Virus record (IMG/VR): IMGVR_UViG_3300014208_000032
Span: 9,116-73,115 of that record
Strand: one strand, 5' to 3'
Origin: a virus
DNA length: 64,000 nucleotides
Within the stretch, counting starts at the first letter, position 1, and each line of letters opens with the position of its first letter. Below the pieces are notes generated by a model. That model was not told the origin of the DNA. It saw nothing but the letters and a program-made list of their open reading frames with translations, and ran no database searches. The translations under genes were made by a program, and so were the position numbers. Shown here piece after piece: positions 7,361 to 54,148 of this stretch.

Positions 7361-8245
7361 TTAACCATTAAGGTGGGATTTCATCCTGTCTTTAAGGCGA
7401 TTGACTTTGGCTTTTGGAGCATCTTCTCCAATAACACTTTCTTTTACAACACCCTTACCTTTTTCTTCATCATTCTCGTCGTCTTCATCTTCTTCATCAT
7501 CACTTTCTTTTTCTTCATCATCCTCGTCGTCTTCATCTTCTTCATCATCACTTTCTTCGTCTTCATCATCCTCGTCGTCTTCATCTTCTTTTTTCTTTTT
7601 CTTGTCTTTTGTTTTCTTGCTGTATTTAGTGTTGGTTCCAGTTTTAGAAGTTTCCTCTTCTTCGTCACCTTCACCAACATCCTCAGCACCCTCAGAAAGG
7701 CTTTCGATAATATTATAGAATTGTTCGGTTACTTCTTCGGCACTACCTTCATTAACAAGGGTAATAATAAGTCGCTGAGTTTTTCTATCATAATCAGAAA
7801 GAAGTTTTGCAAGAGTTCTGGCTCCTTCTTCAAGTTGCATTTCTTTCTTAATCTTCAAATTTTCCTCACGAAGAATAGAAATTTCCTCAGAGTAAAGATT
7901 TCCACCATAACTTTCGTTAAGAGTAGGGGCAACAAGTTCTTTAATTTTTTCAAGAATCTGAAGTTCTGGATTAGAAGAAACCATTTCTGAAATAACTTCT
8001 GCTTTAATTTCATCTCTCATTTCATTGAGAGCAAGCATCATTTTGTCAGCAAATTCTTCCTTCAATTCTTCTTGATACTTCACGTTCTCTTCTTCAAGAA
8101 CCTGGATCAATTTCTGTTTTTCGTTATCAAATTCCTCGTTGAGTTCGTTGATAACCTCTTCTTTCCAAGATTTGATGTGCTCACGAATTTGTTCCTCTTC
8201 GTTCAACTCCAATTCTTTATTCAAAGCATCTTCTTTTTTTGTCAT
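7361..8245 (-). CDS. prohead core scaffolding protein (gp22-like)
   Basis: Glu-rich coiled coil with many L-x-E sites and acidic low-complexity tail; lies between protease and MCP. Confidence 0.75.
   Translation of the reverse strand: MTKKEDALNKELELNEEEQIREHIKSWKEEVINELNEEFDNEKQKLIQVLEEENVKYQEELKEEFADKMMLALNEMRDEIKAEVISEMVSSNPELQILEKIKELVAPTLNESYGGNLYSEEISILREENLKIKKEMQLEEGARTLAKLLSDYDRKTQRLIITLVNEGSAEEVTEQFYNIIESLSEGAEDVGEGDEEEETSKTGTNTKYSKKTKDKKKKKEDEDDEDDEDEESDDEEDEDDEDDEEKESDDEEDEDDENDEEKGKGVVKESVIGEDAPKAKVNRLKDRMKSHLNG
7471..7590. repeat. coding tandem repeat (D/E-rich) in scaffold gene
   Basis: Repeated TCGTCGTCTTCATCTTCTTCATCATCACTTTC units. Confidence 0.7.
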
Positions 8246-9063: not shown

Positions 9064-10686
9064 TTAGAACAATCCTTTTACAATGTCAGAAATTTTAACT
9101 TCTTTTTCATTAAGATAATCAAAACTTTCACCTTCCATAACAAATTCTGGTCTTCCAAAATCACCAGCGGACGGATCAAAAACAACATCAATTGCTTTTA
9201 ATCTCAATCCACTAGTTACTTCTACTAGGTTTTTCCCAAGCTGTCCGGTGTATGGTTTTGTGTTTCCTAAAGCTCTTGTTGAAACCCCGAGGTGAATACC
9301 TTCTGACATCAACTGACGAAGTTTTCTACCTTGGTCTGTATTAAGAACCTCCATTTCACCAACAACAGCGCCATCTTCCATGAGTTCTAATCTTGTTATT
9401 TTGTGAGATATTTTATCAACGTTGATTTTGGGGGAATTTCCTGTCCAAAAAGATTTTCCGTTTTGTTTCATATAAAAATTTCCATTAGGAACAGTAATAC
9501 AATAAACGTTTCCATCATGGTCTTTTTTTTCTATTTTAAGAAATCTTTCATCAAGGTAAATACCTTTTGTTGTAGAAAGATTTAACTGATAAAGAGTTGA
9601 TTTATTTTCCGCTTCAATTAAGTGGTCAGCAAACATATAATCTTCTGTTGTATTTATTTCTGTCCAATTTCCACTTCCTCCACATTTAATGACTAATTCA
9701 TGTAAGTCCTCAATCAATCTCTTAGAAACAGAAAAAACGTTTATTCTGTTTCCTCCATCCATTCCTCTTCGATCTCTTCCATCACCCTTAACAAACCACT
9801 CTACTAATTCTTCAAGATAGGGAGCATCAAGTTGTTTTAGTTCAAGTGGAATATATTTAGCATAGCAATTTCCTAATGGCCTTAAAAAATCAGCAAATGC
9901 TTTAGAACTAAAATTAAATCTAATTAGAACATTATCTCTCCTTTTTTGATGATATTCTTTCATGTCAAAAGGAAGCCTACTAAATAACTCCCTAATCTCA
10001 TCTGCTGTAGTCCCATCGTTTTGTGAAATAGAAATTAGATTCTTCTCTTTTGAAACAAATCCCTCAGAGAGATATATTCCCATAAAAGACATTAGATCTT
10101 TTGTGTTAAACTCAATCCCAGAAATAGTTATTTTTTCGCTCGTTTCTGTTGACCAGTTTCCTAGTTTTATTATTTTATGTTTGTTATATTTATTTCTATT
10201 TTCAAATATTTCCCCAACAGTAACTATTTCTCTTTTTCCATATCTATTTTCTAAATAAAATCTATGAGAACCAGTAAAATCGGATGATATGTTTTTTCCA
10301 TTAAAAGAATAAATATCCCCTTTCCAATACTCATTTATAATTGTTTGTATTGGTTGATAAACAATATCATTGTTTTCATCAAGAGTTGCTACTTCATCAC
10401 CGATTTTACAATCGAGAAACTCTTTCCATCCTTCTTTTGCTAAGATGGAGAAATCGCTAACCCCGACACACGCAGGGTGATCGAGTTCACCTACCAGACC
10501 ATTTCTTGAAATTAAATCTTGAACCGACTCAACCATTTCTTTTAAAATTGCAAATGGATAAACTCTTCCGTTTTTATTGGGAATGTCTGCTTTTGAAAAA
10601 ACACCACGAATAACAAATCTTTTATCCTCGTTTTCTGTTAGTTGATATTCAAGAGGACTAAAATCTTCTAAAAATTTTTCACTCAT
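9064..10686 (-). CDS. prohead core protease (gp21-like) containing an intein
   Basis: NKNGRVYP, GELDHP (catalytic His), KISH, GVSTRALG (catalytic Ser), DVVFDPS. Confidence 0.92.
   Translation of the reverse strand: MSEKFLEDFSPLEYQLTENEDKRFVIRGVFSKADIPNKNGRVYPFAILKEMVESVQDLISRNGLVGELDHPACVGVSDFSILAKEGWKEFLDCKIGDEVATLDENNDIVYQPIQTIINEYWKGDIYSFNGKNISSDFTGSHRFYLENRYGKREIVTVGEIFENRNKYNKHKIIKLGNWSTETSEKITISGIEFNTKDLMSFMGIYLSEGFVSKEKNLISISQNDGTTADEIRELFSRLPFDMKEYHQKRRDNVLIRFNFSSKAFADFLRPLGNCYAKYIPLELKQLDAPYLEELVEWFVKGDGRDRRGMDGGNRINVFSVSKRLIEDLHELVIKCGGSGNWTEINTTEDYMFADHLIEAENKSTLYQLNLSTTKGIYLDERFLKIEKKDHDGNVYCITVPNGNFYMKQNGKSFWTGNSPKINVDKISHKITRLELMEDGAVVGEMEVLNTDQGRKLRQLMSEGIHLGVSTRALGNTKPYTGQLGKNLVEVTSGLRLKAIDVVFDPSAGDFGRPEFVMEGESFDYLNEKEVKISDIVKGLF
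9436..10470 (-). mobile_element. intein (345 aa) with LAGLIDADG homing endonuclease
   Basis: Starts at Cys73 (HPA|CVG), block B FTGSHRF, LAGLIDADG helices FMGIYLSEG and WFVKGDG, block F VYCITVPNGNFY, ends WTGN|S. Confidence 0.9.
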
Positions 10687-24796: not shown

Positions 24797-25333
24797 ATGG
24801 ATTTTAAAGAAAAAGTTTTGGAATTACTTGAAGGAATTGTTAATCCAGATTTAAACAAAGTTTATGGTGGCAAGAAAACTGGAGCTGCTTATGTGAACAA
24901 ACAAGGAACAAGAATTTCTCTTGGTGCGGATGTTCCAAAAGATATTGTTCTTTGGATTAGAAAAAAAAATAAAGATGGCGTTCCTGTTGGAACAATTACT
25001 AATCAATTAAAAATCCACATTGAAAGATGGTTAACCAATCCTAAAAACAAAGAAGTATTAGCAAAGAAATATCAAGAACTTGTTGGTAAAGATTTTCTCA
25101 CACAAGAAGAGGCACTAAGAAAACCTGGTGGAATAGCTTCTGAACTTATTGAAATTGTTTTAAAAGGAAGAACCACAAAAGAAGGAGTTGCTGCGAAAGC
25201 AAAACAACAACCAATAACTAAGGTTTTTAATAAAGAAAAAGATTTTGAAGAAAGAGTTAAAAGACAGATGATTAAAAATCCAAAATTATCAGAAAAACAA
25301 ATTCGCTCTTCTTTGGGAAGGATTTTTAAATGA
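24797..25333 (+). CDS. hypothetical protein with capsid-targeting-like N-terminus
   Basis: MDFKEKVLELLE; AGGAG SD; motif upstream. Confidence 0.6.
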   Translation: MDFKEKVLELLEGIVNPDLNKVYGGKKTGAAYVNKQGTRISLGADVPKDIVLWIRKKNKDGVPVGTITNQLKIHIERWLTNPKNKEVLAKKYQELVGKDFLTQEEALRKPGGIASELIEIVLKGRTTKEGVAAKAKQQPITKVFNKEKDFEERVKRQMIKNPKLSEKQIRSSLGRIFK

Positions 25334-25683
25334 AAGGATTTATGGAAAAAAATAGAACAAAGATTATTGTCATTGTTGCTGTTTTGATTCTTGCAGCATC
25401 TGGAATCTGGGGATATAATTCTTATACCAACAATGGTTTGTTCGAAAAGTTTTGGAAATTCAACAAACAAACCACACAACAAAACGAACTTGTTTTGCAA
25501 AATTTCCCCAAAAAAATCTCTGACCCGTTTGTTGATGGAATTTCTCCAAAACAGTTGGAAACTGTAGACACTATCTTTGATTTAGTTTTCAAATATATAG
25601 ATAAGATATTATCATCATTAGCAACACTATTCGGCTTATTTGTTCTTTATAAAGAAATTAAAAAAGGAAAAAGGAAAACATAA
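25330..25683 (+). CDS. holin candidate (2 TM helices, basic tail)
   Basis: IIVIVAVLILAASGIW and ILSSLATLFGLFVLY, then KKGKRK; precedes putative lysin. Confidence 0.45.
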   Translation: MKGFMEKNRTKIIVIVAVLILAASGIWGYNSYTNNGLFEKFWKFNKQTTQQNELVLQNFPKKISDPFVDGISPKQLETVDTIFDLVFKYIDKILSSLATLFGLFVLYKEIKKGKRKT

Positions 25684-25684
25684 A

Positions 25685-26179
25685 ATGACAAGACAAAAAA
25701 ACTCAAAACTATATCCAGTTATTCAAAAAGAGGGCTGTTATATGCTATCTGGAATGAGAAAAGTTCAACTAATTACGGGAGATAAATTTGATTTTGATAA
25801 TCCAGAATTTGTTAATAAAACTTATGACGAACTATTAAAAAAAGAAATTATTAATTCAAGATGTTTAATGCAATCTCCTACTAAATTTTTTGAATATTTT
25901 AATTTAGATATTAGACAAAGAGTAAGGGCAGACGGAGTAGTTTTTGAATCTACCTATATTCCTTTTGAAAATGAATTTGAAGTTCTTTGTTTTAAAACAA
26001 GTGTTCTTCTTGGAAATTACACGCATTTTGTTCTTGGTAATGGGAAAGGTGGAATAGAGTTTGATCCAATGGGAGAAAGTGATGCTAAACCTTTTGGTTA
26101 TGTTTGTAACAAAGGAAAATTAAGTTCTAAAAGAATATTTAGTGTATTAAAATTTGGATCTGAGAAAAAGGAAATTTAA
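25685..26179 (+). CDS. DUF261-like / C39-like cysteine peptidase, candidate endolysin
   Basis: IQKEGCY...THFV...FDPMG (Q, C, H, D arrangement); ATG at 25685. Confidence 0.6.
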   Translation: MTRQKNSKLYPVIQKEGCYMLSGMRKVQLITGDKFDFDNPEFVNKTYDELLKKEIINSRCLMQSPTKFFEYFNLDIRQRVRADGVVFESTYIPFENEFEVLCFKTSVLLGNYTHFVLGNGKGGIEFDPMGESDAKPFGYVCNKGKLSSKRIFSVLKFGSEKKEI

Positions 26180-26778
26180 TGTGGAAGAAAATTCTATATT
26201 TGCCAAAATTAAAAAAAATATTATTTTTATCTTTGTTGTTGTTATTCTTACAATCACAATCGTTGTCGCAGGATATTATTCTATTACAAACGGTTCCAAC
26301 GGAAAAATTGATACCCTTAGTGCTTCAATATCAACAGATAGCAAAAGACTTGAAGAGTCAATCAGACGATTTGAAGAAACAACTGGACGAATTAATAAAC
26401 AACTCACAGATATCGGAGCAGAAATTTCAGGAATTAAATCAGAGATATCAAAACTTGGAGTCCAGACGAGCAATATTAGAGAAACAGTCAGAGGATTTGG
26501 TAAAACTTTCGGAGAATTTGGCAATGAACTCAATAGGTTTGGAAACTCATTATCAGATATTAAGTCAAGAGTTTCAGGTATTCAATCAGGACTTTCAAAC
26601 ATTCAAACAGGACTTGATGACTTTGATGTCGCAAATAAAAAATTTAGTGATATTATCAACGGAAATTAACAACCAGAATAAATTTTTAACAAACGCTGTC
26701 GTTATTGGTGGCAGCGTTGTTGGTGGCTTAGTAGCTGTAGATGTTATTATAAATATACTACTGCTTTTAAAAAAGTAA
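26179..26778 (+). CDS. secreted coiled-coil protein with C-terminal hydrophobic helix (o-spanin-like role)
   Basis: Signal peptide KKILFLSLLLLFLQSQSLS, heptad repeats, C-terminal AVVIGGSVVGGLVAVDVIINILLLL. Confidence 0.65.
   Translation: MWKKILYLPKLKKILFLSLLLLFLQSQSLSQDIILLQTVPTEKLIPLVLQYQQIAKDLKSQSDDLKKQLDELINNSQISEQKFQELNQRYQNLESRRAILEKQSEDLVKLSENLAMNSIGLETHYQILSQEFQVFNQDFQTFKQDLMTLMSQIKNLVILSTEINNQNKFLTNAVVIGGSVVGGLVAVDVIINILLLLKK
26181..26669 (+). CDS. N-anchored coiled-coil membrane protein (i-spanin-like), overlapping in another frame
   Basis: GTG start at 26181; TM IIFIFVVVILTITIVVAGYY; long heptad pattern. Confidence 0.65.
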   Translation: MEENSIFAKIKKNIIFIFVVVILTITIVVAGYYSITNGSNGKIDTLSASISTDSKRLEESIRRFEETTGRINKQLTDIGAEISGIKSEISKLGVQTSNIRETVRGFGKTFGEFGNELNRFGNSLSDIKSRVSGIQSGLSNIQTGLDDFDVANKKFSDIINGN

Positions 26779-26795
26779 TTCTTTTAATTGTAAAT

Positions 26796-26823
26796 AACCT
26801 AAGTACTCTTTTGTATTTAGGTT
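26796..26823 (+). terminator. intrinsic terminator of lysis-like cassette
   Basis: AACCTAAGTAC/GTATTTAGGTT stem followed by T run. Confidence 0.55.
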
Positions 26824-26853
26824 TTATTTTAGGTAATCTCGTGTAAATTGGCA

Positions 26854-27195
26854 CTAAATCCTCCCGTAATCATCTTCTAATTTAAGAGTATCCTCCTTTT
26901 CTAAATTTCCTTTTTGAATTTCTAATATTATTAAACTATTGTCTTTATCTGGATTATAAATTCTATGTAAATTATTTTTAATAATATTTATTATATCTTC
27001 TTCACAAAAAATATCTATTTTGTCATCTATTTCATATACGGCAGTTCCGTTTAATATATAATTTTTTTCATCTTTAAGGTTGTGTAAATGTAAACTTGTT
27101 CTTTGTTTTGGGTTAATTGTAGTTAAAGATACTTTCTTTTCTTTTGATGAGAATAATATTATTTTTTCACCCCAAGGTTTTTCTATCTTTTCCAT
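26854..27195 (-). CDS. cupin, mannose-6-phosphate isomerase type II C-terminal-like
   Basis: EKPWG, TSLHLHNLKDE, HRIYN, LEIQ, EDDYGR. Confidence 0.8.
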   Translation of the reverse strand: MEKIEKPWGEKIILFSSKEKKVSLTTINPKQRTSLHLHNLKDEKNYILNGTAVYEIDDKIDIFCEEDIINIIKNNLHRIYNPDKDNSLIILEIQKGNLEKEDTLKLEDDYGRI

Positions 27196-27196
27196 A

Positions 27197-27233
27197 ATAG
27201 TATTATCTTTTCAAGCTGCCAAGATAATACTAT
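27197..27233. promoter_or_regulatory. back-to-back pair of putative late promoters (13-bp inverted repeat)
   Basis: ATAGTATTATCTT-N11-AAGATAATACTAT between divergent genes. Confidence 0.6.
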
Positions 27234-27264
27234 GAGATGAAAAACTCAAAAAGGAATAAAAAAA

Positions 27265-27726
27265 ATGGCAACACTAAGAGAAATTTTTGAAGAGACATTA
27301 AACGAAGAACTTGGATCTAAAAACGGAAAAATGAGATTGGCAGACAGAGATGCTTTTTCAGAACTAGTAGGTAATTTAAACCCAAAAACAAAATCAAGTT
27401 TGTTGTCTACTATTGCAAACGGAACAAATGATCAAATTTTTGCAGCACTAAAAGCTGCGTCTACTGGTATGCCTTATAATAAAAGGATTGATGAAATCAA
27501 AGAAGCTGGTGATTTTGATAAATTTATCAACTCCATCAAAGGAATGAAAACAACTGAATCAAAAGTTGTTGTTTCTTATGACAGAAACAAATCATCTACA
27601 TTTAGAAAAAACTTAAAAGATACCAGAAACCAATTTGCCGATAAAGTTGCCACTGATGCAGAAAAACGCCCTGCTTTTTCAAAAAAAACAGACCTTGCAA
27701 ATAAAATAAAGGGTGATTGTAAATAA
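27265..27726 (+). CDS. hypothetical protein with capsid-targeting-like N-terminus
   Basis: MATLREIFEETLNE. Confidence 0.6.
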   Translation: MATLREIFEETLNEELGSKNGKMRLADRDAFSELVGNLNPKTKSSLLSTIANGTNDQIFAALKAASTGMPYNKRIDEIKEAGDFDKFINSIKGMKTTESKVVVSYDRNKSSTFRKNLKDTRNQFADKVATDAEKRPAFSKKTDLANKIKGDCK

Positions 27727-27727
27727 A

Positions 27728-28507
27728 ATGAAAAAATTATTGTTAATACTATTAACATTATTTTTTTCTTGCACTAGTAATGTTAAAGACGAAAAAACTA
27801 TAACATTTGTTATTAACCCTTGGTTTCCGTATGAACTATGGAACGAAGAGGATAAAAAAATAGAAGGTGCAACTGGAGAATATGTTGATTTAGTTTTTAG
27901 AGAACTTGGATATAAAACAGAATTTATTGTTGAGCCAAAATTTGATAGAGCTCTTTATATGGTATCAGTTGGAGAGGTTGATGCAGTTTATACTTTATTA
28001 AAAACAGAAGAGAGGACAAAAACAATGTTGTTTTCTACTTCTATAATTACTCCCTATGAATCAATGTTTTATATTAACAAAACAAAACATCCAAACTTAG
28101 TTAACGCAGATATTTATTCCACGAAAGAACAACTTATATTTGGTTCTCTAACTGGGGAAACAGAAACAGCTATTACTGTAAATTCTAACCCTAATTTTAC
28201 ATTCATCAGAACGTTTGAAAAATATCAGGATTTAATGTATTCATTGGATGCAAATATAATCAATATTGCTTTTATGGAAAAGTATAATGGAATTTATGAA
28301 TATAATCAATATAAAAAAAATAACACCTTGTCAACATTTGAACTATCCAGCACTAATAATACCTCTAGACAAGATTTAAAAATAGCTTTTACAAAAAATG
28401 ATCGAGGAGAAAGATTTCAGAAAGATTTTGATTTAAAAAACTTAGAGTTAAAAAAAACAAACATTCTTGAAAAATTATTTGAAAAATATGTAGGAAAATT
28501 AAATTGA
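27728..28507 (+). CDS. lipoprotein, extracellular solute-binding protein family 3
   Basis: Lipobox MKKLLLILLTLFFS|C; PWFPY..EG..VDLV..LGY..FDRAL..GEVD..ER; ATG 27728. Confidence 0.8.
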   Translation: MKKLLLILLTLFFSCTSNVKDEKTITFVINPWFPYELWNEEDKKIEGATGEYVDLVFRELGYKTEFIVEPKFDRALYMVSVGEVDAVYTLLKTEERTKTMLFSTSIITPYESMFYINKTKHPNLVNADIYSTKEQLIFGSLTGETETAITVNSNPNFTFIRTFEKYQDLMYSLDANIINIAFMEKYNGIYEYNQYKKNNTLSTFELSSTNNTSRQDLKIAFTKNDRGERFQKDFDLKNLELKKTNILEKLFEKYVGKLN

Positions 28508-29292
28508 TTACAACAGGTCTTATGGGATCTTTTATGCTAGATTTTTTTTTACTAATCTCTTTGTTTTCAATAAGTGTTTTGAGTTTTAATAAATATTTTA
28601 TAGAATTATTTTATGAAAATCTAAAAATAGGTTCTAAAAAAATATCTGCAAAAAAAGAATACAACACATCTGCTTTGTGTCTTGGTTTTCTTTATTTGTC
28701 TTATTTTTTCGAGAGTTTTTTTGAAGGAATTAATTCAAGTGGTGTTTATTTTATTTTACCATTCTTAATAAAACTGTCTAATTATGATATTAGGTTTTTT
28801 CTGTACTTGTTTGATATTATTTCTATATTTTTTTTGGGAATAGTTTTAACAAAAATCACTCAAAGATACTTTAATAGTTTTAAACAATCAAACAATTTAT
28901 TAATGATAAAATTTATTATTGTAATCACTATTTTTTTGTTTATTTTAGATTCTTTTCTTAAAACAAACTATATTCATCAAACCCTTCATATTATACAAAA
29001 AATTTTGATATTCATATTTTTTCACTTTATTTATATTAACAAGAACAAAGCTCTTGAAACAGATTTTTCTATTTACTATAGAATTGGTTTTGTTTTACTT
29101 ATTTCTTATTTATTTACTTGTTCTGTCATTTACATTTCTTCTGTGACTTTATATTTAGGCGTGTTTTTAACAATACATAATATTGCAAACGTTATAGAAA
29201 AAATAATTGTTCTCTTGTTTGGTATATTACTAACAATAATAATAGAAAAAGATGTTGGAAAAATTAGGATAAAATATGATAGAAATAATTGA
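28504..29292 (+). CDS. multi-pass (~7 TM) membrane protein
   Basis: About 7 hydrophobic segments; coupled to SBP gene. Confidence 0.7.
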   Translation: MITTGLMGSFMLDFFLLISLFSISVLSFNKYFIELFYENLKIGSKKISAKKEYNTSALCLGFLYLSYFFESFFEGINSSGVYFILPFLIKLSNYDIRFFLYLFDIISIFFLGIVLTKITQRYFNSFKQSNNLLMIKFIIVITIFLFILDSFLKTNYIHQTLHIIQKILIFIFFHFIYINKNKALETDFSIYYRIGFVLLISYLFTCSVIYISSVTLYLGVFLTIHNIANVIEKIIVLLFGILLTIIIEKDVGKIRIKYDRNN

Positions 29293-30055
29293 TTTTATAA
29301 ACAGACTCTCTCTTCCTTTTGTTTTTGGGTTTATATTTAGCACTGCAGTTGTTTCTGTGAGTTTGATTTATCTTTTTTTGTATGAATCTATTAATCCAAT
29401 AAAAAAAATAATAAATTCCTTTCTGGTTATTTTGTCGTATATTGCCTTACTTTTTTCTCTTGTTTTAGAGTATAATTATGTTTTGATAATAAATCAATTC
29501 ACAACTTTCTTATTAGACCCTAAGCATACAATTTATTATATTACATATTTAAATCTTTTCTTTTATATTATTCATTATAAAGTAATTAGTGAAAATCTTG
29601 TTAAAAATAAAACTTATCAAAAAATAGGATTTTTTGTAAATTATGGAGTTCTTCTTGTTGTTCTGTTATCAACAACTCTTAATGATTATGAATATTACTT
29701 TATATTTGTTGTTTTGTTTTTAATCACTTTATTTATTAATTTTTTCTTTTGGTTAAAATGTTTTAAAAGCAAGTCGTTTGCTGTAATGACTTTTATAATA
29801 ACTCTTTTTAGTTTTGTTTTTTTTATGTTTAAAACAGGATATTTGTTCGGACTAACATTTAATTCATTTCAAATGCTTTATTTTTTAAATGCTTATAAGT
29901 GGGTAATATTTACAATCTATCCTATTTTATTAGGAATTGGAATCTCTTATTATAACTTTCTCATAGTAAAAAGTTATGATATAGACAAAAATAATAACAA
30001 TAAACTTAACTCGTTTAAATTTATTAAAGTTAAACCAGAGGAAAAAAAGGTTTAA
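29276..30055 (+). CDS. multi-pass (~7 TM) membrane protein, sensor-domain-like
   Basis: About 7 hydrophobic segments; last helix YPILLGIGISYYNF resembles 7TM sensor ends. Confidence 0.7.
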   Translation: MIEIIDFINRLSLPFVFGFIFSTAVVSVSLIYLFLYESINPIKKIINSFLVILSYIALLFSLVLEYNYVLIINQFTTFLLDPKHTIYYITYLNLFFYIIHYKVISENLVKNKTYQKIGFFVNYGVLLVVLLSTTLNDYEYYFIFVVLFLITLFINFFFWLKCFKSKSFAVMTFIITLFSFVFFMFKTGYLFGLTFNSFQMLYFLNAYKWVIFTIYPILLGIGISYYNFLIVKSYDIDKNNNNKLNSFKFIKVKPEEKKV

Positions 30056-30058
30056 TAA

Positions 30059-30925
30059 ATGCTAGAATCATATTTCACTTGGATTTCAACACTAGAACAA
30101 GGGACAGGAATATTTGTCTTTTTTCTCTCTGTATTGTTAGCTTTTATTTTGCTAGTTTTTTCTATTAGAATAACTCTAAACGCTTTGGCAGTTTTAGCTA
30201 GTAAAATACCAGCAAAAAAAAGAGCAGGAATTCTTTTTAAAATAATTAATATATTTGTCGGGAAAAAATCCGAAAAAGATGATGAAGAAGAAAAAGATGA
30301 TACAATGAGTATTTCTAATTCTATTGATACTACGGAAGTTGTTCTTATGATTTCTAATATATTAATTTTCAAAGAAGAAGAAAAAAAATTAGAAAAAGAA
30401 TTTATGATCACTAGTATTAAATTAGTAGACCAAACAATGAAAACAGAACTTGCAAAAACAATTAGAGAAATGATTTATGTATCAGATCCTGTTTTTTATG
30501 CGGAGGAAACAGAATTTTTGGGTCTTTATACGGAAGCTATTGCTCTTTCTATGGATGAGGTTTTAAAAGATGCTATTAGAGAAAATGGGTTAGATAAATA
30601 CACTGACTCAATTGCTAAAAAAAATTATATCGACTTGAAAATACTTGATATTATTAATTTAATAACTTATAAATTAATTGGTGTTGTAAAAAAAATGGCA
30701 AAGAGAGAAAATAAAGAATTTCTCTCTTATTTAGAAAGCACTAAATTTTATATAGAATTAAGAAGATTGTTTGTTGATCTATTTGAAAAACTCATTGTGT
30801 TTGCTATCGAAAAAGAAGCAAAAAGAACAATCATGAAAGAAAAAATCATTGAAACATTCACAACAATTTCAGAGACATCTGAAAGTTCGATCAAAATAAT
30901 AAAAAATTTAATGTTTATTAAATAA
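30059..30925 (+). CDS. membrane-anchored helical protein
   Basis: N-terminal TM IFVFFLSVLLAFILLVFSI, then soluble helical domain. Confidence 0.65.
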   Translation: MLESYFTWISTLEQGTGIFVFFLSVLLAFILLVFSIRITLNALAVLASKIPAKKRAGILFKIINIFVGKKSEKDDEEEKDDTMSISNSIDTTEVVLMISNILIFKEEEKKLEKEFMITSIKLVDQTMKTELAKTIREMIYVSDPVFYAEETEFLGLYTEAIALSMDEVLKDAIRENGLDKYTDSIAKKNYIDLKILDIINLITYKLIGVVKKMAKRENKEFLSYLESTKFYIELRRLFVDLFEKLIVFAIEKEAKRTIMKEKIIETFTTISETSESSIKIIKNLMFIK

Positions 30926-30932
30926 AAAATAA

Positions 30933-33900
30933 CTAAAGAATTACATAAGTAAAGTGGAACGACCATCTAGTATTAGCAACATTAGTTGTAACATCAGTTG
31001 TTACTGTAGCTCTATCGTTAGCAACATCTCCTATTATTTCCATACTAGCAATTTCAGATGATGCAACACAAGAGCCAGCTAATTGATAAACTTGACTAAA
31101 ATTAGAAGGTATTGGCAAAGATAGTCCCATAGCAGTTGTTGTAGATGCTGAAGTTATATCAAGATTAAATTCTCCTGAAACAGTAACCAGATTTCCTATT
31201 CTAAACCATTGTGCTCCTAAAGATGCAGAAGCATCTACATTTGTTGTGTTATAAAGAGTGGGTGTATAAGTCCCAGAAGTTATATATTGATTCGTTACGC
31301 CAGTTACATCACCAACATTGTTATGTAGATTTGATCCATATATCCTACCATCAGCCATTACATTAAATACATCTGTACCACCTGCTAATCCACTATCATT
31401 AACAGCAAATTTAGCACCAGTAGCGCCAGAAGAAAGACCAACAATTACTTGTCCAGGTCTTGAAGCATGAGCATGTGCATGAAAATGTATAGCTCCACCC
31501 ATAGCAGCAGAACCAGAGCCAGCCTGTATAGATAATCTTCCAGTACCAGCACCAATTTCTTCTGTTAATATGTATTTATTGCCTGTTAATGTTGGGAGTA
31601 TTAAATTTCCATCAGTAGATAGCGCCATTCTTGATGTAGCGGCAGTAGAGTCATAGAAACTAATACCCCCACCCTTGTAAAGAACATAATTAGAATAATT
31701 AACACTTGCAACCCCAGTAGTAGCAAGTTCAAGAGCTGTAATATTTGTTTTTGATTCAATATTAATAGCAGCAGTTTCTCCACCAGTAGCGGTTCCTTTA
31801 ATAGCTATTCCTGAAGTGTTAACACCTGCAGCAAACCATGTTGGATTATCTATTCTACCATTTAACACATTTCCACCAGCAGAATTAAGTATAATATTTC
31901 CATAAGCACCACCAGTTTTATAAGCCTGCCAAGCAGAATAAGTATCTCCACTAGTAGCGCCATTATATAATATTGACCCGGAACCAATAGTTGAAACATC
32001 CCAATCGGTATTTCCAAACACTATTTTCTGAGTGTCAGGACCTTTTATTTGTAATCTACCTAATCCATTTGTTATTGCCCCACCTACAAGAATATTTCCA
32101 GTCAATCCTATTAATTTCATCATTTCTGTAGGACGAGTTGTGGCTGATGCGTCTAACATGCCACCAAAAATGATATTAGTAGAAGAATGCACACCTCCTG
32201 ATGTGATAGACTCAAACCACATTCCAGCAGTATAAGATGGGTCTGCAACGTCTCTATAGGTATCCGCTAATATGCCACCAAAAATATAAGTCCCGTTCGT
32301 AGAGTTATGATAAGCGTTTATTATAGAACCAGAAGTATTAATAGCAGATAAATTTGTAGGTGCAATATATAATTTATCAATAAGAGCAATATTTCCAACA
32401 ACATTTAATTTATAAGTTGTTGTGGTTATTGTTCCTACGCTAATATTATTAGTAGCTGTATCAATCATTATAGATGGTGCAGTTGCACCTCCTATACCAA
32501 ATTTACCAGCTCCAAGTGTCCAACCACCATGACTTAAGTACACATCAGTAGTTCCCCAACTAGTTCTAATACCAGATTCAGCAGCAGCTCTATATATGTG
32601 TATTGGATATAATGGAGTTGTAATACCTATTCCCAATGTGTCATTTACTTCATCATAAGTAGAAGCTCCAAAAAGTATTTTACCTTTTGTTGCGTGAGAT
32701 GTTGAAAAAAGAGTTAAGTTATTTCCTGATGCAGTTCCGCCTATTACAGTTTGTCCACCAGATAAACCAGTTATTAAATTATTAGCAATAGCATTTACTG
32801 TTCTTGTTAAACCACTTCCAAAAGTAAGGATAGCATCTTTTGTATTTAATTGAGCTTGTATATTTGATGTAACGTCAGTTAAATAACCCAATTTTGTTGT
32901 TGTGATACCATCTAAAGTTTTTAATTGGAATGAGGCACTATCGTAATAAGCAACAGTTGCGTCATCAGGAGTTTCTTCTATTGTTGCAATCTTTACTAAA
33001 GACCCCGCATCACCAATTCTTGCCCAACCACCATTATCAAGTACTAAAAACCCATCATTAATTCCATCATAAAGTTTTGCTTGAAATCCAGTATAAACTC
33101 CAGTGCCTAAACCTGATACTGCACCATCTCTGGTTATTATTATATCTTTTGTTGTAAAAATTTGTTCTGCATGAGTTGTGTAAGATGTTCCAACTTGGTA
33201 AATATTTCCAGTAATATTAACATCACCATTACCTTTAATGTTGAATGTAGAAATATTACTTCCGCTCAAAATTTCAAATACTTTATCAGTATCTGCTGTT
33301 GATCCTCTTTTTATTTGAAGAGCACTTAATGCTGCAGTTGTTGTTATTTGTGGTTGAGTTGAATTATTATAAGCTTGTTGAATTGTTGTTGTTCCAGAAC
33401 CAGATGCTGTGGCGTTAGATCCTCCCCACTTATCAACTTCAAAAAACTTAGCTTGAGTTAAATCACTAAGATCTGTTGCTGTGCTTTTAATAATTAAAAT
33501 ACATCTCAACAAACCATTCTCAGCAATATTCTGCTCAGTAATAAACACTTCAGAATTAATTGCTTGAATTGCCTCAGACATTGAACCATAAAATGCTTGA
33601 CCATATTGAATACGAATAAGGTTAGATGTAAAAATAACAATTCTTTGAATTGTAAATTTATTTGGATTTAATACAGTTCTAACGCCATTTAAATCATAAT
33701 AACCTGGATCTAAAACTGCAGTATCTGCATACTCAGTTCCTGTATTTAATCTATATCTAATGTTTGTTGGGGCAATTAAACCAGAAAGAGTTATTTTATG
33801 TGGATTTTTGTGACTAATAAAAAAATTAACACCTTTTTTGAAAACATAACCAATACTTTTATTAATTGAAAGATTGATTCCGTTAGGTGAAATTATATTT

Positions 33901-34595
33901 CCAGAAACATTAAAATTCCTCATGCTGTCTAAGAGATCGTTAAATTGTGATATTGAATTTCCAGCAACGTCTGGAAGATTATTTACAGCATTAATAGTAG
34001 TTCTGTTTGAGTGAATAATTACACCAAGCAAAACATGATCTCTTCTATCTTCTATAGTAAACGGAGAAGTTTCTTGTATAATTGCGTTGGTAACAAAATC
34101 CATTGCTAAATATGTTACATTGTGAGTTAATATATTTGTAACTGATACACCAGTTATCCCTGGAAAATTTATTACGGAACCTGTTGGGTTTATTGGATCA
34201 GTGGTATTCACTTGATTAGCATACCCAGATGAAATATTAAATTTTGTTGGATCTGCGTTTATAGAAATTGTAAATCCAGCTCTAACCCCATTAGATGATT
34301 CATTAACTATTTTTTTGTTAATTTCATCAGTAAACTCATGTAGTGAAAATACGTGAATAGCTTCCAGTGAAGTAAAAACATTCGTTGGAATTGCTAATAA
34401 ATTATCTTTTGTTAAAATCAAATCACCTGAAATTATTTCTGCTTCAAAGTTTTTACTAGCAAAATAAATATCTGATAACTCTTTTTCGTTTTTTATGGAA
34501 AAATAAGTATAAGGATAAATGTCTTTATTTATTTGTGCAATTCTTATTGTAGAACTTGTGTTGTTGTATAAATAAATTGGAAATATTATATTCAT
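30933..34595 (-). CDS. tail fibre / receptor-binding protein
   Basis: 1220 aa G/T/S-rich; GIGITTP-type repeats; C-terminal SGTYTPT..RIGNLVTVSG..FTYVIL. Confidence 0.8.
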   Translation of the reverse strand: MNIIFPIYLYNNTSSTIRIAQINKDIYPYTYFSIKNEKELSDIYFASKNFEAEIISGDLILTKDNLLAIPTNVFTSLEAIHVFSLHEFTDEINKKIVNESSNGVRAGFTISINADPTKFNISSGYANQVNTTDPINPTGSVINFPGITGVSVTNILTHNVTYLAMDFVTNAIIQETSPFTIEDRRDHVLLGVIIHSNRTTINAVNNLPDVAGNSISQFNDLLDSMRNFNVSGNIISPNGINLSINKSIGYVFKKGVNFFISHKNPHKITLSGLIAPTNIRYRLNTGTEYADTAVLDPGYYDLNGVRTVLNPNKFTIQRIVIFTSNLIRIQYGQAFYGSMSEAIQAINSEVFITEQNIAENGLLRCILIIKSTATDLSDLTQAKFFEVDKWGGSNATASGSGTTTIQQAYNNSTQPQITTTAALSALQIKRGSTADTDKVFEILSGSNISTFNIKGNGDVNITGNIYQVGTSYTTHAEQIFTTKDIIITRDGAVSGLGTGVYTGFQAKLYDGINDGFLVLDNGGWARIGDAGSLVKIATIEETPDDATVAYYDSASFQLKTLDGITTTKLGYLTDVTSNIQAQLNTKDAILTFGSGLTRTVNAIANNLITGLSGGQTVIGGTASGNNLTLFSTSHATKGKILFGASTYDEVNDTLGIGITTPLYPIHIYRAAAESGIRTSWGTTDVYLSHGGWTLGAGKFGIGGATAPSIMIDTATNNISVGTITTTTYKLNVVGNIALIDKLYIAPTNLSAINTSGSIINAYHNSTNGTYIFGGILADTYRDVADPSYTAGMWFESITSGGVHSSTNIIFGGMLDASATTRPTEMMKLIGLTGNILVGGAITNGLGRLQIKGPDTQKIVFGNTDWDVSTIGSGSILYNGATSGDTYSAWQAYKTGGAYGNIILNSAGGNVLNGRIDNPTWFAAGVNTSGIAIKGTATGGETAAINIESKTNITALELATTGVASVNYSNYVLYKGGGISFYDSTAATSRMALSTDGNLILPTLTGNKYILTEEIGAGTGRLSIQAGSGSAAMGGAIHFHAHAHASRPGQVIVGLSSGATGAKFAVNDSGLAGGTDVFNVMADGRIYGSNLHNNVGDVTGVTNQYITSGTYTPTLYNTTNVDASASLGAQWFRIGNLVTVSGEFNLDITSASTTTAMGLSLPIPSNFSQVYQLAGSCVASSEIASMEIIGDVANDRATVTTDVTTNVANTRWSFHFTYVIL

Positions 34596-34613
34596 ATTAT
34601 TATCTTTATGATG

Positions 34614-37700: not shown

Positions 37701-37730
37701 ACTATTATCTTGACTTGAAAAGTTAATACT
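37701..37730. promoter_or_regulatory. back-to-back leaderless late-type promoters
   Basis: CAT-ACT-ATTATCTT-GACTTGAA-AAGTTAAT-ACT-ATG. Confidence 0.65.
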
Positions 37731-38564
37731 ATGAAAAGCTTTAAAGAACATTTACAAAGAAAATTAGACGAAAACGTATTAGATCCTATTAATAAAACAA
37801 AATCAAAAGAACTTTGGAGTACATCCGGTAATCTTCTTCCAGACGCTAAGAGAACGCTTTTGACGAACTTTTACTCCTGGTGGGATAAGTTTGGGTTTGA
37901 ACGCAAAGATATAAAAAAAATGCTTATCCTGGGCAGTATAACGGGCTTTCAATACAATGAAGCTTCAGATATTGATGTTAATGTTGTGGTTAATCTTTCT
38001 AAAGAAAAAATATCTTCTGTTTATAAATTATTACCAGGAAATGTTAAGATTGGGAAACATCCTTGTAATTATTATCTTACAGCAGATGAATATGATGCTG
38101 GAAAAGCAGACGGGGTTTATAACGTAGTAAAAGATGTTTGGGAAAAAGAAGTAAAAAAAATAGACCCAAAAATTGATAACAGTTATGTTCTTGAAGTTAC
38201 TAAATTTTTTATGGACGGAATTGATGGGCGAATTGCTGAATATGAGAGAGATAAGAAAGAACTTGATATGTTTTATCAATATCTTAAAGACGCAGATCTT
38301 GAAGTTAATAAAAATGATTTAGAAAAAAGTATAGCTCAAAAAAAAGGCGAGATCGAAGCTGATATTCAGTCGCTAGTTATTGGTTATCATGTTATCAAAG
38401 CTTTTAGATGGGAAGCATTTGTAAAAGATGCTAAACCAATAGAATTACAAATTCAAATAAAAAGCCCTAACCTTACGTTGAACAATTTAATTTATAAAAC
38501 ACTAGAAAGGTTTGGATATTTTGATAAACTCCACTCCGTTTTGGAAAAAGAAGGAAAACTATGA
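37731..38564 (+). CDS. Pol-beta superfamily nucleotidyltransferase with capsid-targeting N-terminus
   Basis: LGS..GFQYNEASDIDVNVV; N-terminus MKSFKEHL. Confidence 0.75.
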   Translation: MKSFKEHLQRKLDENVLDPINKTKSKELWSTSGNLLPDAKRTLLTNFYSWWDKFGFERKDIKKMLILGSITGFQYNEASDIDVNVVVNLSKEKISSVYKLLPGNVKIGKHPCNYYLTADEYDAGKADGVYNVVKDVWEKEVKKIDPKIDNSYVLEVTKFFMDGIDGRIAEYERDKKELDMFYQYLKDADLEVNKNDLEKSIAQKKGEIEADIQSLVIGYHVIKAFRWEAFVKDAKPIELQIQIKSPNLTLNNLIYKTLERFGYFDKLHSVLEKEGKL

Positions 38565-43329: not shown

Positions 43330-43760
43330 TATAGATTTTCCTTGTCTTTTTTAATTAAATCTTGTATTTCTGTCTTTCCAAAAAACCAGTCGTTTTCGTT
43401 TTTTGTTTTAAGATTTTTGACATACATTTTATTATATCTTCTCAAAAGAGGGAGAGCATCGGGGAAAAAATATTTAATTCTTTTATATTTTTCTTCTTTA
43501 TTAACAGATAACATTCTGGCGAAACTATCAATTTCATCAATTGCTCTCATTGCGTATTTTTTATTATCATAATAATTTACATTAAAACCAAGAATATCAC
43601 TTCTTTTGCCATAGGTTTTTTGGTGAGGTTGTCCTGGATATTCAAAATCCAATACTTTTACTTTTGGGTTAGGATCTTGCTTAAAATTGTCGTATTTGAA
43701 TTTAACAAGTACTGCATCTTCGCTGAGAACAATTTCTTCATATAATTCTTGAAACTTCAT
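43329..43760 (-). CDS. possible gp2-like DNA end protector; capsid-targeting-like N-terminus
   Basis: FKY..DPNPKVKVLD..LGFNVNY..RRY pattern; MKFQELYEE. Confidence 0.4.
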   Translation of the reverse strand: MKFQELYEEIVLSEDAVLVKFKYDNFKQDPNPKVKVLDFEYPGQPHQKTYGKRSDILGFNVNYYDNKKYAMRAIDEIDSFARMLSVNKEEKYKRIKYFFPDALPLLRRYNKMYVKNLKTKNENDWFFGKTEIQDLIKKDKENL

Positions 43761-43776
43761 AATATTATCTTTTCAA

Positions 43777-45037: not shown

Positions 45038-45095
45038 ATAATATTATCTTTACGTCTTTTACAAAAGTTATTAAATTATTATACTTTGGTAAAAA

Positions 45096-48691: not shown

Positions 48692-49276
48692 ATGAATAGC
48701 ATAACACATGCAGAGTTTGAATTTTCTTTATTAGAAAATGTAAAATATGAAACAGAGGATGAAGTTCCTATTGTTTTAGAATACAAAGAAGAAATTATTA
48801 ACTTAATTAAAAAATTTAGTAATTCAGGGCAATCAGGAATGTCTGCCCCAATCACTGCTTCTATAATTACTAATTGTATTAAAAATCTTATGGCATTTAA
48901 ACCAATTGGCCCACTTGTTGGGAACGAAGAAGAATGGAATTATAATAGCGATGATAGTTTTCAAAATAATAGATTATCTGCTGTGTTTAAAACTGGATTA
49001 AATGGTAAACCTTATTATTTAGATGCCATTACTTTTGTTGGAGAAGAGGAGTATGACACTTTTCACGGACATGTTGAAGGTATATCTTCTAGACAATATT
49101 TAAAAGGTTTTCCATTTTTTCCAAAGACGTTTTACATAAATGTTTATAAGGATTTTGAAAATAAAGATGAAAACAATTTATGTAGTGGAGATGATGGAGA
49201 GTATACCTATAGAATTAAATATCCAGAACAACTAGAAGAAGTGTTTAATTATTATGATAAATTTACAAAGGAGTAA
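48692..49276 (+). CDS. conserved phage hypothetical protein
   Basis: FS.SGQSGMSA..PL.G.EEEWN..QNNRLSAVFK; AGGAG SD. Confidence 0.65.
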   Translation: MNSITHAEFEFSLLENVKYETEDEVPIVLEYKEEIINLIKKFSNSGQSGMSAPITASIITNCIKNLMAFKPIGPLVGNEEEWNYNSDDSFQNNRLSAVFKTGLNGKPYYLDAITFVGEEEYDTFHGHVEGISSRQYLKGFPFFPKTFYINVYKDFENKDENNLCSGDDGEYTYRIKYPEQLEEVFNYYDKFTKE

Positions 49277-53524: not shown

Positions 53525-54148
53525 TTAAAAAATAGAACAAATGATAAGAAACAAACCAGTATAATAAGTTGGCATTATAAGATATTGATAAGCATTCTTA
53601 AAAGGCCAATTTGGATTAAACAACTGATGAGCAATTACACTGTCGCTGATATAAAGCAACGAAGTTCCAATAACAATCATCCAATTTCCGGTTAGTATTG
53701 CCATTGATACTAAAAATACCTGTGCCAATAAATAAACAGCAATAGGAATTGTTTTATCTCCAGCTTTTAAAAATAAAAATTGAAAGATTGAAAACCCAAT
53801 CAAAGTAATAAGAGGAATAATAATCATTTCGTTAATAATTAAAGTTTTAAATAAAAATGAAACTCCAAACAAAACATATCCAATCAGAAAAGATAATGCT
53901 CCATAAATAAATACTTCATCTTTCCCTAAATAAGAAAGAAAGTAATCACCTATTACAGAAAGTAAAAATCCAACTGAAAGAATTACCATCCCAATTGAGG
54001 GAAATAAAATTGTTCCAACAATAGAAAGACCAAAAAACAATCCAGTTGATGTAAGTTTTACCAACCCTGCTTTTAAATTATTTTGAACCGCCAACTCCAT
54101 TCCAATTAATCCAACAACAAGAGCTACTAATCCTAATGCTATAAACAT
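53525..54148 (-). CDS. YhhN-family membrane protein (lysoplasmalogenase-like)
   Basis: SVIGDYFL, GALSFL, LYISDSVIA, IMPTYY; ~8 TM. Confidence 0.75.
   Translation of the reverse strand: MFIALGLVALVVGLIGMELAVQNNLKAGLVKLTSTGLFFGLSIVGTILFPSIGMVILSVGFLLSVIGDYFLSYLGKDEVFIYGALSFLIGYVLFGVSFLFKTLIINEMIIIPLITLIGFSIFQFLFLKAGDKTIPIAVYLLAQVFLVSMAILTGNWMIVIGTSLLYISDSVIAHQLFNPNWPFKNAYQYLIMPTYYTGLFLIICSIF

Follow-up and report, generated by a model that had tools for sequence, protein, structure and literature searches.

We examined a 64,000-nucleotide stretch of viral DNA (positions 9,116 to 73,115 of IMG/VR record IMGVR_UViG_3300014208_000032), referred to here as the window, in which four consecutive genes at 27728-30925 on the plus strand encode a solute-binding lipoprotein (SBP), two proteins with seven transmembrane (TM) segments each (TM_A and TM_B) and a protein with a single TM helix (P4). 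The four genes very probably constitute a conserved unit whose products form a complex. This module is new in composition, because three of its four proteins (TM_A, TM_B and P4) belong to orphan families and no system like it has been described. We tentatively propose that it encodes a membrane complex that senses a periplasmic ligand and is tied to lysis or other envelope events, a reading that we hold to be plausible, if somewhat short of probable. The window is part of a 159.8-kb viral record with a CheckV completeness of 69%. Since the record carries terminase, portal and tail-fibre genes, its source is, judged by gene content, a large tailed phage, and the full genome probably exceeds 200 kb.

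The four genes are tightly coupled. The SBP stop codon (gene at 27728-28507, 259 aa) is overlapped by 4 nt by the TTG start codon of TM_A (28504-29292, 262 aa), for which an alternative ATG lies 18 nt downstream; the start of TM_B (29276-30055, 259 aa) overlaps TM_A by 17 nt, and a 3-nt spacer separates TM_B from P4 (30059-30925, 288 aa). These open reading frames (ORFs) and junctions are exactly as described in an earlier note on this DNA, which was made from the sequence alone. The note had characterised the products as a family-3 solute-binding lipoprotein, two proteins of about 260 aa with about seven TM helices and a 288-aa helical protein with one TM helix, and had found no ATP-binding cassette (ABC) ATPase, kinase or cyclase. 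All of these descriptions held: the SBP_bac_3 domain scores above its cut-off and the lipobox is conserved, TM_B was modelled with seven helices and TM_A has seven hydrophobic segments by hydropathy, and P4 was modelled with a single TM helix at its N-terminus, followed by a C-terminal domain that is helical throughout. The ABC ATPase family PF00005 has no match in the 159.8-kb record (69% complete), and the four proteins contain no kinase or cyclase domain.

The earlier note had called for a synteny search and allowed that the genes might never co-occur elsewhere. They do co-occur: every relative for which enough DNA is available keeps the order SBP, TM_A, TM_B, P4, with junctions that overlap or nearly abut, and the module recurs in about 8-10 metagenomic phage lineages, down to 24-29% amino acid identity for TM_B and P4. 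Complete modules are found on contig L003 (identities of 71% for SBP, 37-39% for TM_A, 73% for TM_B and 48-49% for P4) and, listed in the same gene order, on L009 (63/25/26/37%), L011 (48/23/28/29%) and L012 (51/25/24/29%). The short contig L013 has TM_A, TM_B and P4, and other short contigs (L004, L005, L008, L010, L014, L015 and L016) carry partial gene sets. SBP is the best-conserved component across the family (48-71% identity) and TM_A the fastest-evolving, at about 22-37% identity to its orthologs (alignment A6). On L015 a 70-aa gene call on the minus strand (L015:2126-2338) masks the start of TM_A; this call is probably wrong, and the plus strand appears to encode a TM_A-like N-terminus directly after SBP.

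Conservation of the module does not extend to its surroundings. The flanks of L009, L011 and L012 have little recognisable in common with this genome beyond an SLT gene (30% identity), an SMC-like gene (29%) and a Tad3-like gene (37%), against 51-64% for SBP. Because the flanking genes are nearly unshared while the module is conserved, these comparisons indicate that the four genes are kept or moved as a unit. The ratio of non-synonymous to synonymous substitution rates (dN/dS) relative to L003 is 0.14 for SBP, 0.40 for TM_A, 0.12 for TM_B and 0.34 for P4, with dS near saturation; values in this range (0.12-0.40) indicate that all four genes are real, intact and under purifying selection.

These observations bear on the simplest explanation, which the earlier note had also raised, that the module is an ordinary or decayed fragment of a host amino-acid ABC transporter and a functionless passenger in the phage. 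The SBP family is very common in bacteria, and the layout superficially resembles that of HisJQMP operons. A passenger would not be expected to look as the module does, with four intact genes under purifying selection that stay together to the depth of divergence given above. Moreover, the eight proteins found with the SBP profile at E ≤ 1e-5 are all from contigs of this phage module, a pattern scan of 185,579 species genomes in GTDB with the same profile found no relative, and the TM proteins show no permease signal. We regard this explanation as effectively refuted.

Within the reach of our searches, the module is rare, confined to phages and represented only in metagenomes. An exhaustive HMMER profile search with TM_B against 1.84 billion representative proteins returned eight proteins of 104-261 aa, all of them stand-alone. 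Deposited phages (INPHARED) gave no match by blastn with the module DNA or by tblastn with SBP, TM_B and P4, nor did IMG/VR when it was pattern-scanned with TM_A, P4 and the profiles of TM_B and SBP. A word-indexed search with TM_A returned TM_A alone, and a metagenome scan added one 1-kb contig of the L009/L010 lineage. TM_A, TM_B and P4 have no match in Pfam, PHROG or NCBIfam, including a Pfam scan of every family member at E ≤ 10 and a PHROG search at E ≤ 0.1; in the latter, none of the four proteins matches an annotated lysis family. The earlier note knew of no phage system with this layout, and we likewise found none described in the literature, Pfam, PHROGs, NCBIfam, the PDB or INPHARED.

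Of the four proteins, SBP alone belongs to a known family. It matches the Pfam family SBP_bac_3 (PF00497) over residues 30-256 with 44.7 bits (gathering cut-off 26.4, E 1.4e-11), its orthologs carry the PF00497 annotation in precomputed tables, and the signal peptide and lipobox cysteine are kept in five of five full-length orthologs. The solved structures nearest to the family profile include polar amino-acid binders (4i62, E 5.4e-6), the GlnPQ binding domain and an ancestral Gln/Arg binder, as well as flytrap domains from two sensor kinases, EvgS and BvgS. R96, in the motif T-E-E-R, and E184 are invariant in the SBP alignment (A8) and align with T-D-E-R and with the acidic residue of F-E-E in 4i62, which we take to be the positions that bind the alpha-carboxylate and the alpha-amino group in amino-acid binders. 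Because both residues are retained at these positions, the pocket looks competent to bind an amino-acid-like head group. The only PHROG match of SBP is to phrog_10776 (function unknown; a 674-position profile), through the N-terminal part of that profile. A regulatory domain of the MltF type was also considered; no MltF entry occurs among the PDB matches at E ≤ 5.

The two 7TM proteins are predicted to form a pseudo-symmetric heterodimer. Complex prediction, a check proposed in the earlier note, gave TM_A and TM_B an ipSAE of 0.67, a mark reached by 58 of 80 solved complexes and by 2 of 110 mismatched pairs; the best of three controls scored 0.00 (own shallow alignments). The prediction runs share at least 74% of contacts, with a partner pLDDT of at least 78, and the modelled interface places TM1/TM7 of TM_A against TM1/TM6/TM7 of TM_B in a parallel arrangement. 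The distribution of charges points to the same orientation. In TM_B, loops 1, 3 and 5 as well as the C-tail carry basic residues, which would place its N-terminus outside and its C-terminus inside (N-out/C-in), and the C-tail of TM_A contains a conserved basic motif, G-K-x-R-I/L-K. From these loop and tail charges both proteins are likely to be N-out/C-in, with which the parallel, pseudo-symmetric dimer agrees. Paralogy of the two proteins was not detected by BLASTP (E 0.04 over 58 residues) or by hhalign (probability 0.4%); an ancient duplication may still lie behind them, given that the two match in size and topology and that their predicted interface is pseudo-symmetric.

The model of TM_B, made with AlphaFold2 (AF2), resembles well-known seven-helix proteins. 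Its best Foldseek matches are microbial rhodopsins (E 1.1e-3 to 3e-2, TM-scores 0.5-0.6), with SRII-HtrII entries among the matches, and in a VIA search of 48,161 PDB representatives the top 50 were all rhodopsins, G-protein-coupled receptors (GPCRs) and an adiponectin receptor. The best VIA match has a Z of 15.9 and a root-mean-square deviation of 3.4 A over 219 residues, and identity to the rhodopsin matches is 5-13%. Because the best Z barely exceeds the values usual for helical models, we read the likeness as a rhodopsin/GPCR-type arrangement of helices in the model and not as homology. Among the ESM Atlas structures closest to TM_B are membrane modules taken from GGDEF proteins and histidine-kinase sensors (TM-scores 0.55-0.67), a likeness of models that gives a weak hint of a sensory role; every feature score in that search was below 0.9. 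Neither TM_A nor TM_B has a Pfam match to 7TMR-DISM or other bacterial 7TM sensor modules at E ≤ 10, and the exhaustive TM_B search found no fused output domain.

If the structural matches were taken literally, TM_A and TM_B could be divergent microbial rhodopsins and the module light-driven or light-sensing; microbial rhodopsins are, after all, the best structural matches of TM_B by Foldseek, and the VIA values lie at Z 13-16. The sequences speak strongly against this. K208, the sole lysine in TM7 of TM_B, is replaced by serine in L011, L012 and L013, and there is no other invariant membrane lysine; because K208 is not conserved, TM_B would not be a retinal protein. Together with the low identity to the matched rhodopsins and the lack of any Bac_rhodopsin match in a Pfam scan of all TM_B family members at E ≤ 10, this makes a light-dependent function scarcely credible.

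Sequence conservation in the 7TM pair is concentrated outside the membrane. In TM_B it peaks in the N-tail and in cytoplasmic loop 1 (Y-E-x-x-N-P-I), and in TM_A in the cytoplasmic C-tail motif and loop 5, while the TM4/TM5 cores are the least conserved parts and contain no invariant polar residue. Because the extramembrane elements are conserved and the TM4/TM5 cores are not, conservation on both faces of the membrane fits docking surfaces, a scaffold or a relay better than it fits a solute pathway, although this is soft evidence.

This pattern has to be set against an alternative that the gene order invites, namely that the module is a new SBP-dependent importer in which TM_A and TM_B translocate the ligand of SBP, either the membrane potential or an ATPase recruited from the host supplies the energy, and P4 plays an accessory or gating part, so as to boost amino-acid uptake late in infection. 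As in the HisJQMP and GlnHPQ importers, one coupled operon encodes a family-3 binding protein, then two membrane proteins and then a fourth protein of about 260-290 aa, and in order and size (259/262/259/288 aa) the genes mirror HisJ-Q-M-P-type ABC operons for polar amino acids. The amino-acid-binding residues of SBP are retained, and the predicted membrane pair is heteromeric and pseudo-symmetric, like many transporters. Phage-encoded binding proteins that feed host transporters also exist; cyanophage PstS is a precedent for a phage-borne solute-binding protein gene, although PstS is a lone gene whose product plugs into the host PstCAB, whereas the SBP of the module is invariably coupled to three phage-specific membrane proteins. 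The resemblance to importers ends with the layout. The membrane proteins of the module are seven-helix proteins without the BPD_transp_1/EAA signature: PF00528 (BPD_transp_1) has no match at E ≤ 10 in 15 TM_A/TM_B family members, nor in the 159.8-kb record, which speaks against their being ordinary ABC permeases, a finding that the earlier note had named as one that would refute its reading. The sole trace of any transporter family at that threshold is TctB, at E 3.7 in one of the eight TM_B members, and SBP belongs to family 3 and is not of the DctP or TctC type of the tripartite (TRAP/TTT) transporters. P4 is a membrane-anchored, all-helical protein in place of a nucleotide-binding domain, and the record (69% complete) contains no ABC ATPase. 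With receptors and rhodopsins filling the top 50 fold matches of TM_B, and with membrane cores that are poorly conserved and devoid of invariant polar residues, we consider an importer unlikely. If the module did prove to be a transporter, it would represent a new class of binding-protein-dependent uptake system.

The N-terminal acidic peptide of P4 leads into a TM helix and a basic stretch; a short amphipathic segment and then a disordered acidic linker come before a helical bundle of about 200 residues. The N-terminal peptide is 15 residues long and conserved (M-VE-FF-W...LD, alignment A5). The basic stretch after the TM helix is present in seven of seven members, and because the positive-inside rule is satisfied in all of them, the bundle is likely to be cytoplasmic and the N-peptide periplasmic. 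The AF2 model is all-helical, with a pLDDT of 77 overall and 85-93 over residues 90-260. The most conserved element of the protein is a loop of the bundle at residues 176-183 (N-x-L-x-x-x-T, with N176, L178 and T182 invariant), and conservation peaks again on the N-peptide. P4 has no nucleotide-binding motif and no family match, and the fold searches proposed in the earlier note, which connected SBP with amino-acid binders and TM_B with rhodopsin- and GPCR-like proteins, failed for P4. Its best E against the PDB by Foldseek was 0.12, with TorS sensor-domain entries among the weak matches; a VIA search of all PDB representatives reached Z 8.7, within the noise range of helical proteins; BFVD gave an unnamed protein at E 0.017, and the ESM Atlas gave nothing usable.

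The module recurs beside lysis-type genes. In the window and in L003 it lies 0.95 kb downstream of a lysis-type block, which in the window occupies 25330-26823 (+); this block encodes a TM protein of 117 aa (25330-25683, a candidate holin), a peptidase-like DUF261 protein and an overlapping pair of coiled-coil TM proteins, and a hairpin closes it; the lysis-type genes end at 26778, at a distance of 950 nt and on the same strand, as the earlier note had estimated (about 1 kb). The DUF261 protein (25640-26179, +; Pfam E 5.2e-16) is likely to be the peptidoglycan-active enzyme of this block, and the coiled-coil TM proteins have weak PHROG matches to Rz-like spanins. In L009, an 85-aa holin-like gene with two TM segments overlaps the start of SBP, and an SLT lytic transglycosylase gene (E 2.5e-13) follows P4 after 69 nt. 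In L011, L012 and L013, a gene for a phrog_26752 protein starts 14-38 nt after P4 (L011:9678-10343, L012:7079-7729 and L013:2471-3031). The encoded proteins contain an invariant H...x18...S-A-G-C-I, which is YkuD-like, and have a weak Pfam match (E 7.7e-4); we consider them candidate YkuD-fold endolysins. Next to them is a holin-like ORF with two TM segments, uncalled in L011 (about 10350-10600) and L012 (about 7740-7990) and homologous to a 115-aa gene of L013 (3044-3391), and after it a gene whose coiled-coil product is anchored at its N-terminus and has a weak Rz-like match. Because three unrelated families of peptidoglycan enzymes (DUF261, SLT and YkuD-like) adjoin the same module, the gene neighbourhoods argue for a functional link to lysis. 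The annotation of phrog_26752 is 'unknown function', and its members here sit ahead of holin-like and Rz-like genes. DUF261 is known chiefly from Borrelia, and this, combined with SBP being a lipoprotein, hints at a spirochaete or another host with lipid-anchored binding proteins.

In the window, the module is separated from the lysis genes by a terminator-like hairpin (26796-26823), a small cupin gene on the opposite strand and a promoter-like element of its own, and because these intervene we conclude from the layout that it is its own transcription unit, outside the lysis-gene operon. The first gene of this unit, up153 (27265-27726, +), encodes a soluble protein of 153 aa and stops 1 nt ahead of the SBP ATG. 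It is 32% identical to its L003 ortholog (dN/dS 0.46) and absent upstream of SBP in L009, L011, L012, L014 and L015, which marks it as lineage-specific and as lying outside the conserved module. The 69-nt divergent intergenic region between up153 and the cupin gene contains a perfect 13-bp inverted repeat of AAGATAATACTAT (27197-27233), with the minus-strand copy (27197-27209) 2 nt before the cupin start and the plus-strand copy (27221-27233) 32 nt before the up153 ATG. The motif, searched with at most two mismatches, has 20 matches in the window, compared with 7.0 expected, and none of 100 shuffles reached 20. One-mismatch copies coincide with gene starts or lie immediately ahead of them, including those of the tail-fibre gene (34594-34606) and of the genes starting at 37731, 43760 and 45037, and L003 retains the motif at the start of its tail-fibre gene as well as 32 nt upstream of its up153 ortholog. 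We infer that the motif is a promoter of the phage itself, belonging to the structural (late) class, and the inverted repeat suggests that it serves two divergent genes.

The recurring motif, AAGATAATAYTAT, is found at 27197-27233, 34594-34606, 37720-37732, 43759-43771 and 45038-45050, and its end coincides with several start codons or falls no more than 2 nt from them; the genes linked to it are those of the tail fibre, the 37731 operon, the gene ending at 43760 and TnpB. This position suggests a phage promoter that yields leaderless or nearly leaderless mRNAs. Other candidates were set aside: the classic T4 late promoter TATAAATA, with 16 matches where 12.45 were expected, is not enriched and was dropped in favour of AAGATAATAYTAT, and matches to sigma-70-like promoters are at chance level (27 compared with 29.5). 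No Rfam family of structured RNA was matched in 26700-31200.

The same neighbourhood can be explained in another way, if the module is a cassette for superinfection exclusion or envelope protection, whose proteins occupy or modify a component of the host envelope (for example an amino-acid transporter or the route of DNA entry) and so block secondary infection or protect the cell until lysis. Lysis and tail-fibre genes, both of which the module adjoins, are typical neighbours of genes for exclusion and conversion (lambda bor and lipoproteins of the T5 llp type, for example), and the movement or retention of the module as a cassette among phages with otherwise unrelated flanks is in keeping with such a role. 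TM_A, judged by its low identities and its dN/dS, evolves fast, as would be expected of a protein engaged in conflict, and the high conservation of SBP would be expected if it fitted a conserved host partner. Known exclusion systems, however, consist of one or two small proteins, compared with which a conserved four-protein complex with an intact binding pocket is unusually elaborate; none of the proteins resembles an exclusion family in PHROG or Pfam (the PADLOC library was not scanned), and a late-type promoter would act late for exclusion, though not for protection of the cell and the progeny. On balance such a cassette seems improbable.

Our preferred reading, that of a periplasmic ligand-sensing complex, can be put as follows. 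The four proteins would form one phage-specific complex in the cytoplasmic membrane of the host. SBP would bind a small periplasmic ligand with an alpha-amino-acid-like head group (a free amino acid, a peptide or a cell-wall fragment) and dock on the pseudo-symmetric TM_A/TM_B heterodimer of two seven-helix bundles. P4 would join through its conserved periplasmic N-peptide and its TM helix and present its helical bundle to the cytoplasm, coupling the complex to a cytoplasmic target. In this way the complex might relay the state of the ligand across the membrane and act on an envelope event late in infection, most probably the timing or licensing of lysis. Late expression of this kind would fit the presence, ahead of the module, of the same promoter-like motif as at the tail-fibre gene.

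Several observations weigh against this proposal. The ligand class is read from two aligned residues, the family alignments are shallow (5-8 sequences), and the model of TM_B is of modest confidence (pLDDT 62). Seven-helix bundles are generically alike, so that values of Z around 13-14 are common for helical models. In a diderm host, SBP could go to the outer membrane, apart from the 7TM pair. No component of the module has a recognisable signalling output domain, and the P4 bundle matches nothing above helical noise. Adjacency to lysis genes is known from just three arrangements, such neighbourhoods are classic landing places for unrelated accessory genes, and in the window the module is transcribed separately from them. 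The idea of the earlier note, a sensing system that controls lysis, has therefore fared unevenly: the unit is real and its link to lysis recurs in three arrangements, but the last protein has no recognisable output fold, and module and lysis genes belong to separate transcription units.

Among known systems, TorT-TorS, LuxP-LuxQ and BvgS/EvgS are functionally the closest, in that a periplasmic binding-protein fold recognises the ligand for a membrane partner. TorS, LuxQ, BvgS and EvgS, however, terminate in histidine kinases (HAMP, DHp and catalytic domains), whereas the module is without an output domain; its membrane part is a stand-alone 7TM pair, and the P4 bundle is predicted to be cytoplasmic and not a periplasmic sensor domain. 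Two further likenesses are architectural analogies only. In SRII-HtrII a 7TM bundle is paired with a helical transducer, and in class C GPCR heterodimers such as GABA-B a flytrap-type domain is combined with a 7TM heterodimer (GABA-B and GPR156 are among the TM_B matches, at Z 13.2). The module has no sequence relationship to either, no retinal lysine, and no HAMP or methyl-accepting domain in P4, and its binding protein is a separate type-II (family 3) lipoprotein, unlike a fused type-I flytrap.

A phage parallel is offered by T4 lysis inhibition, in which membrane and periplasmic phage proteins (holin T, antiholin RI and RIII) read a periplasmic cue and adjust the timing of lysis. Recurrence beside lysis genes may make the module a functional counterpart. 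The two share no component, no module protein is homologous to an annotated lysis-regulator PHROG, and P4 differs in being a predicted N-out single-pass protein.

A bolder version of the sensing hypothesis is that the module is a phage-encoded receptor complex, made up of a flytrap lipoprotein, a GPCR/rhodopsin-like 7TM heterodimer and a single-pass transducer whose helical bundle lies in the cytoplasm, which senses a periplasmic cue (amino-acid-like or derived from the cell wall) and sets the lysis time, a lysis-inhibition state or a superinfection response. We consider this version rather doubtful. If true, it would constitute a class of viral transmembrane signalling not described before, with orphan families supplying all of its parts. 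Among known phage decision systems, the receptors of arbitrium and quorum sensing are cytoplasmic, and T4 lysis inhibition uses small antiholins; the module would be the first viral system to couple a binding protein to dedicated phage 7TM proteins. Should the module control the timing of lysis, it would provide a ligand-gated handle on phage lysis. Apart from function, three new protein families are defined here, and the predicted 7TM heterodimer has no cellular homolog among the 1.84 billion representative proteins.

Some other features of the region were noted. The cupin gene that diverges from the promoter element of the module (26854-27195, -) encodes a stand-alone protein of 113 aa that matches the C-terminal domain of mannose-6-phosphate isomerase (E 2e-13), and its position is kept in L003. 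Ahead of the module in L011, a 103-kb relative, and on the same strand (L011:2723-6394), lies a lipid-modifying set of thioesterase-like, Lipase_3 and YhhN genes. A link between the module and genes of lipid metabolism was considered and rejected, since the YhhN gene of this genome (about 53534-54001, -) is 23 kb from the module and linkage is not consistent. A 194-aa ORF at 48692-49276 (+) is 37% identical over 159 residues to a gene of L012 annotated PF25185 (Tad3), so that the phage may carry a Tad3-type anti-defence protein. Finally, a terminator-like hairpin on the minus strand (30701-30728) lies about 205 nt beyond the stop of the convergent tail-fibre gene (30933). Because this hairpin sits within the 3' end of the P4 gene, the tail-fibre transcript may run antisense across the end of P4.

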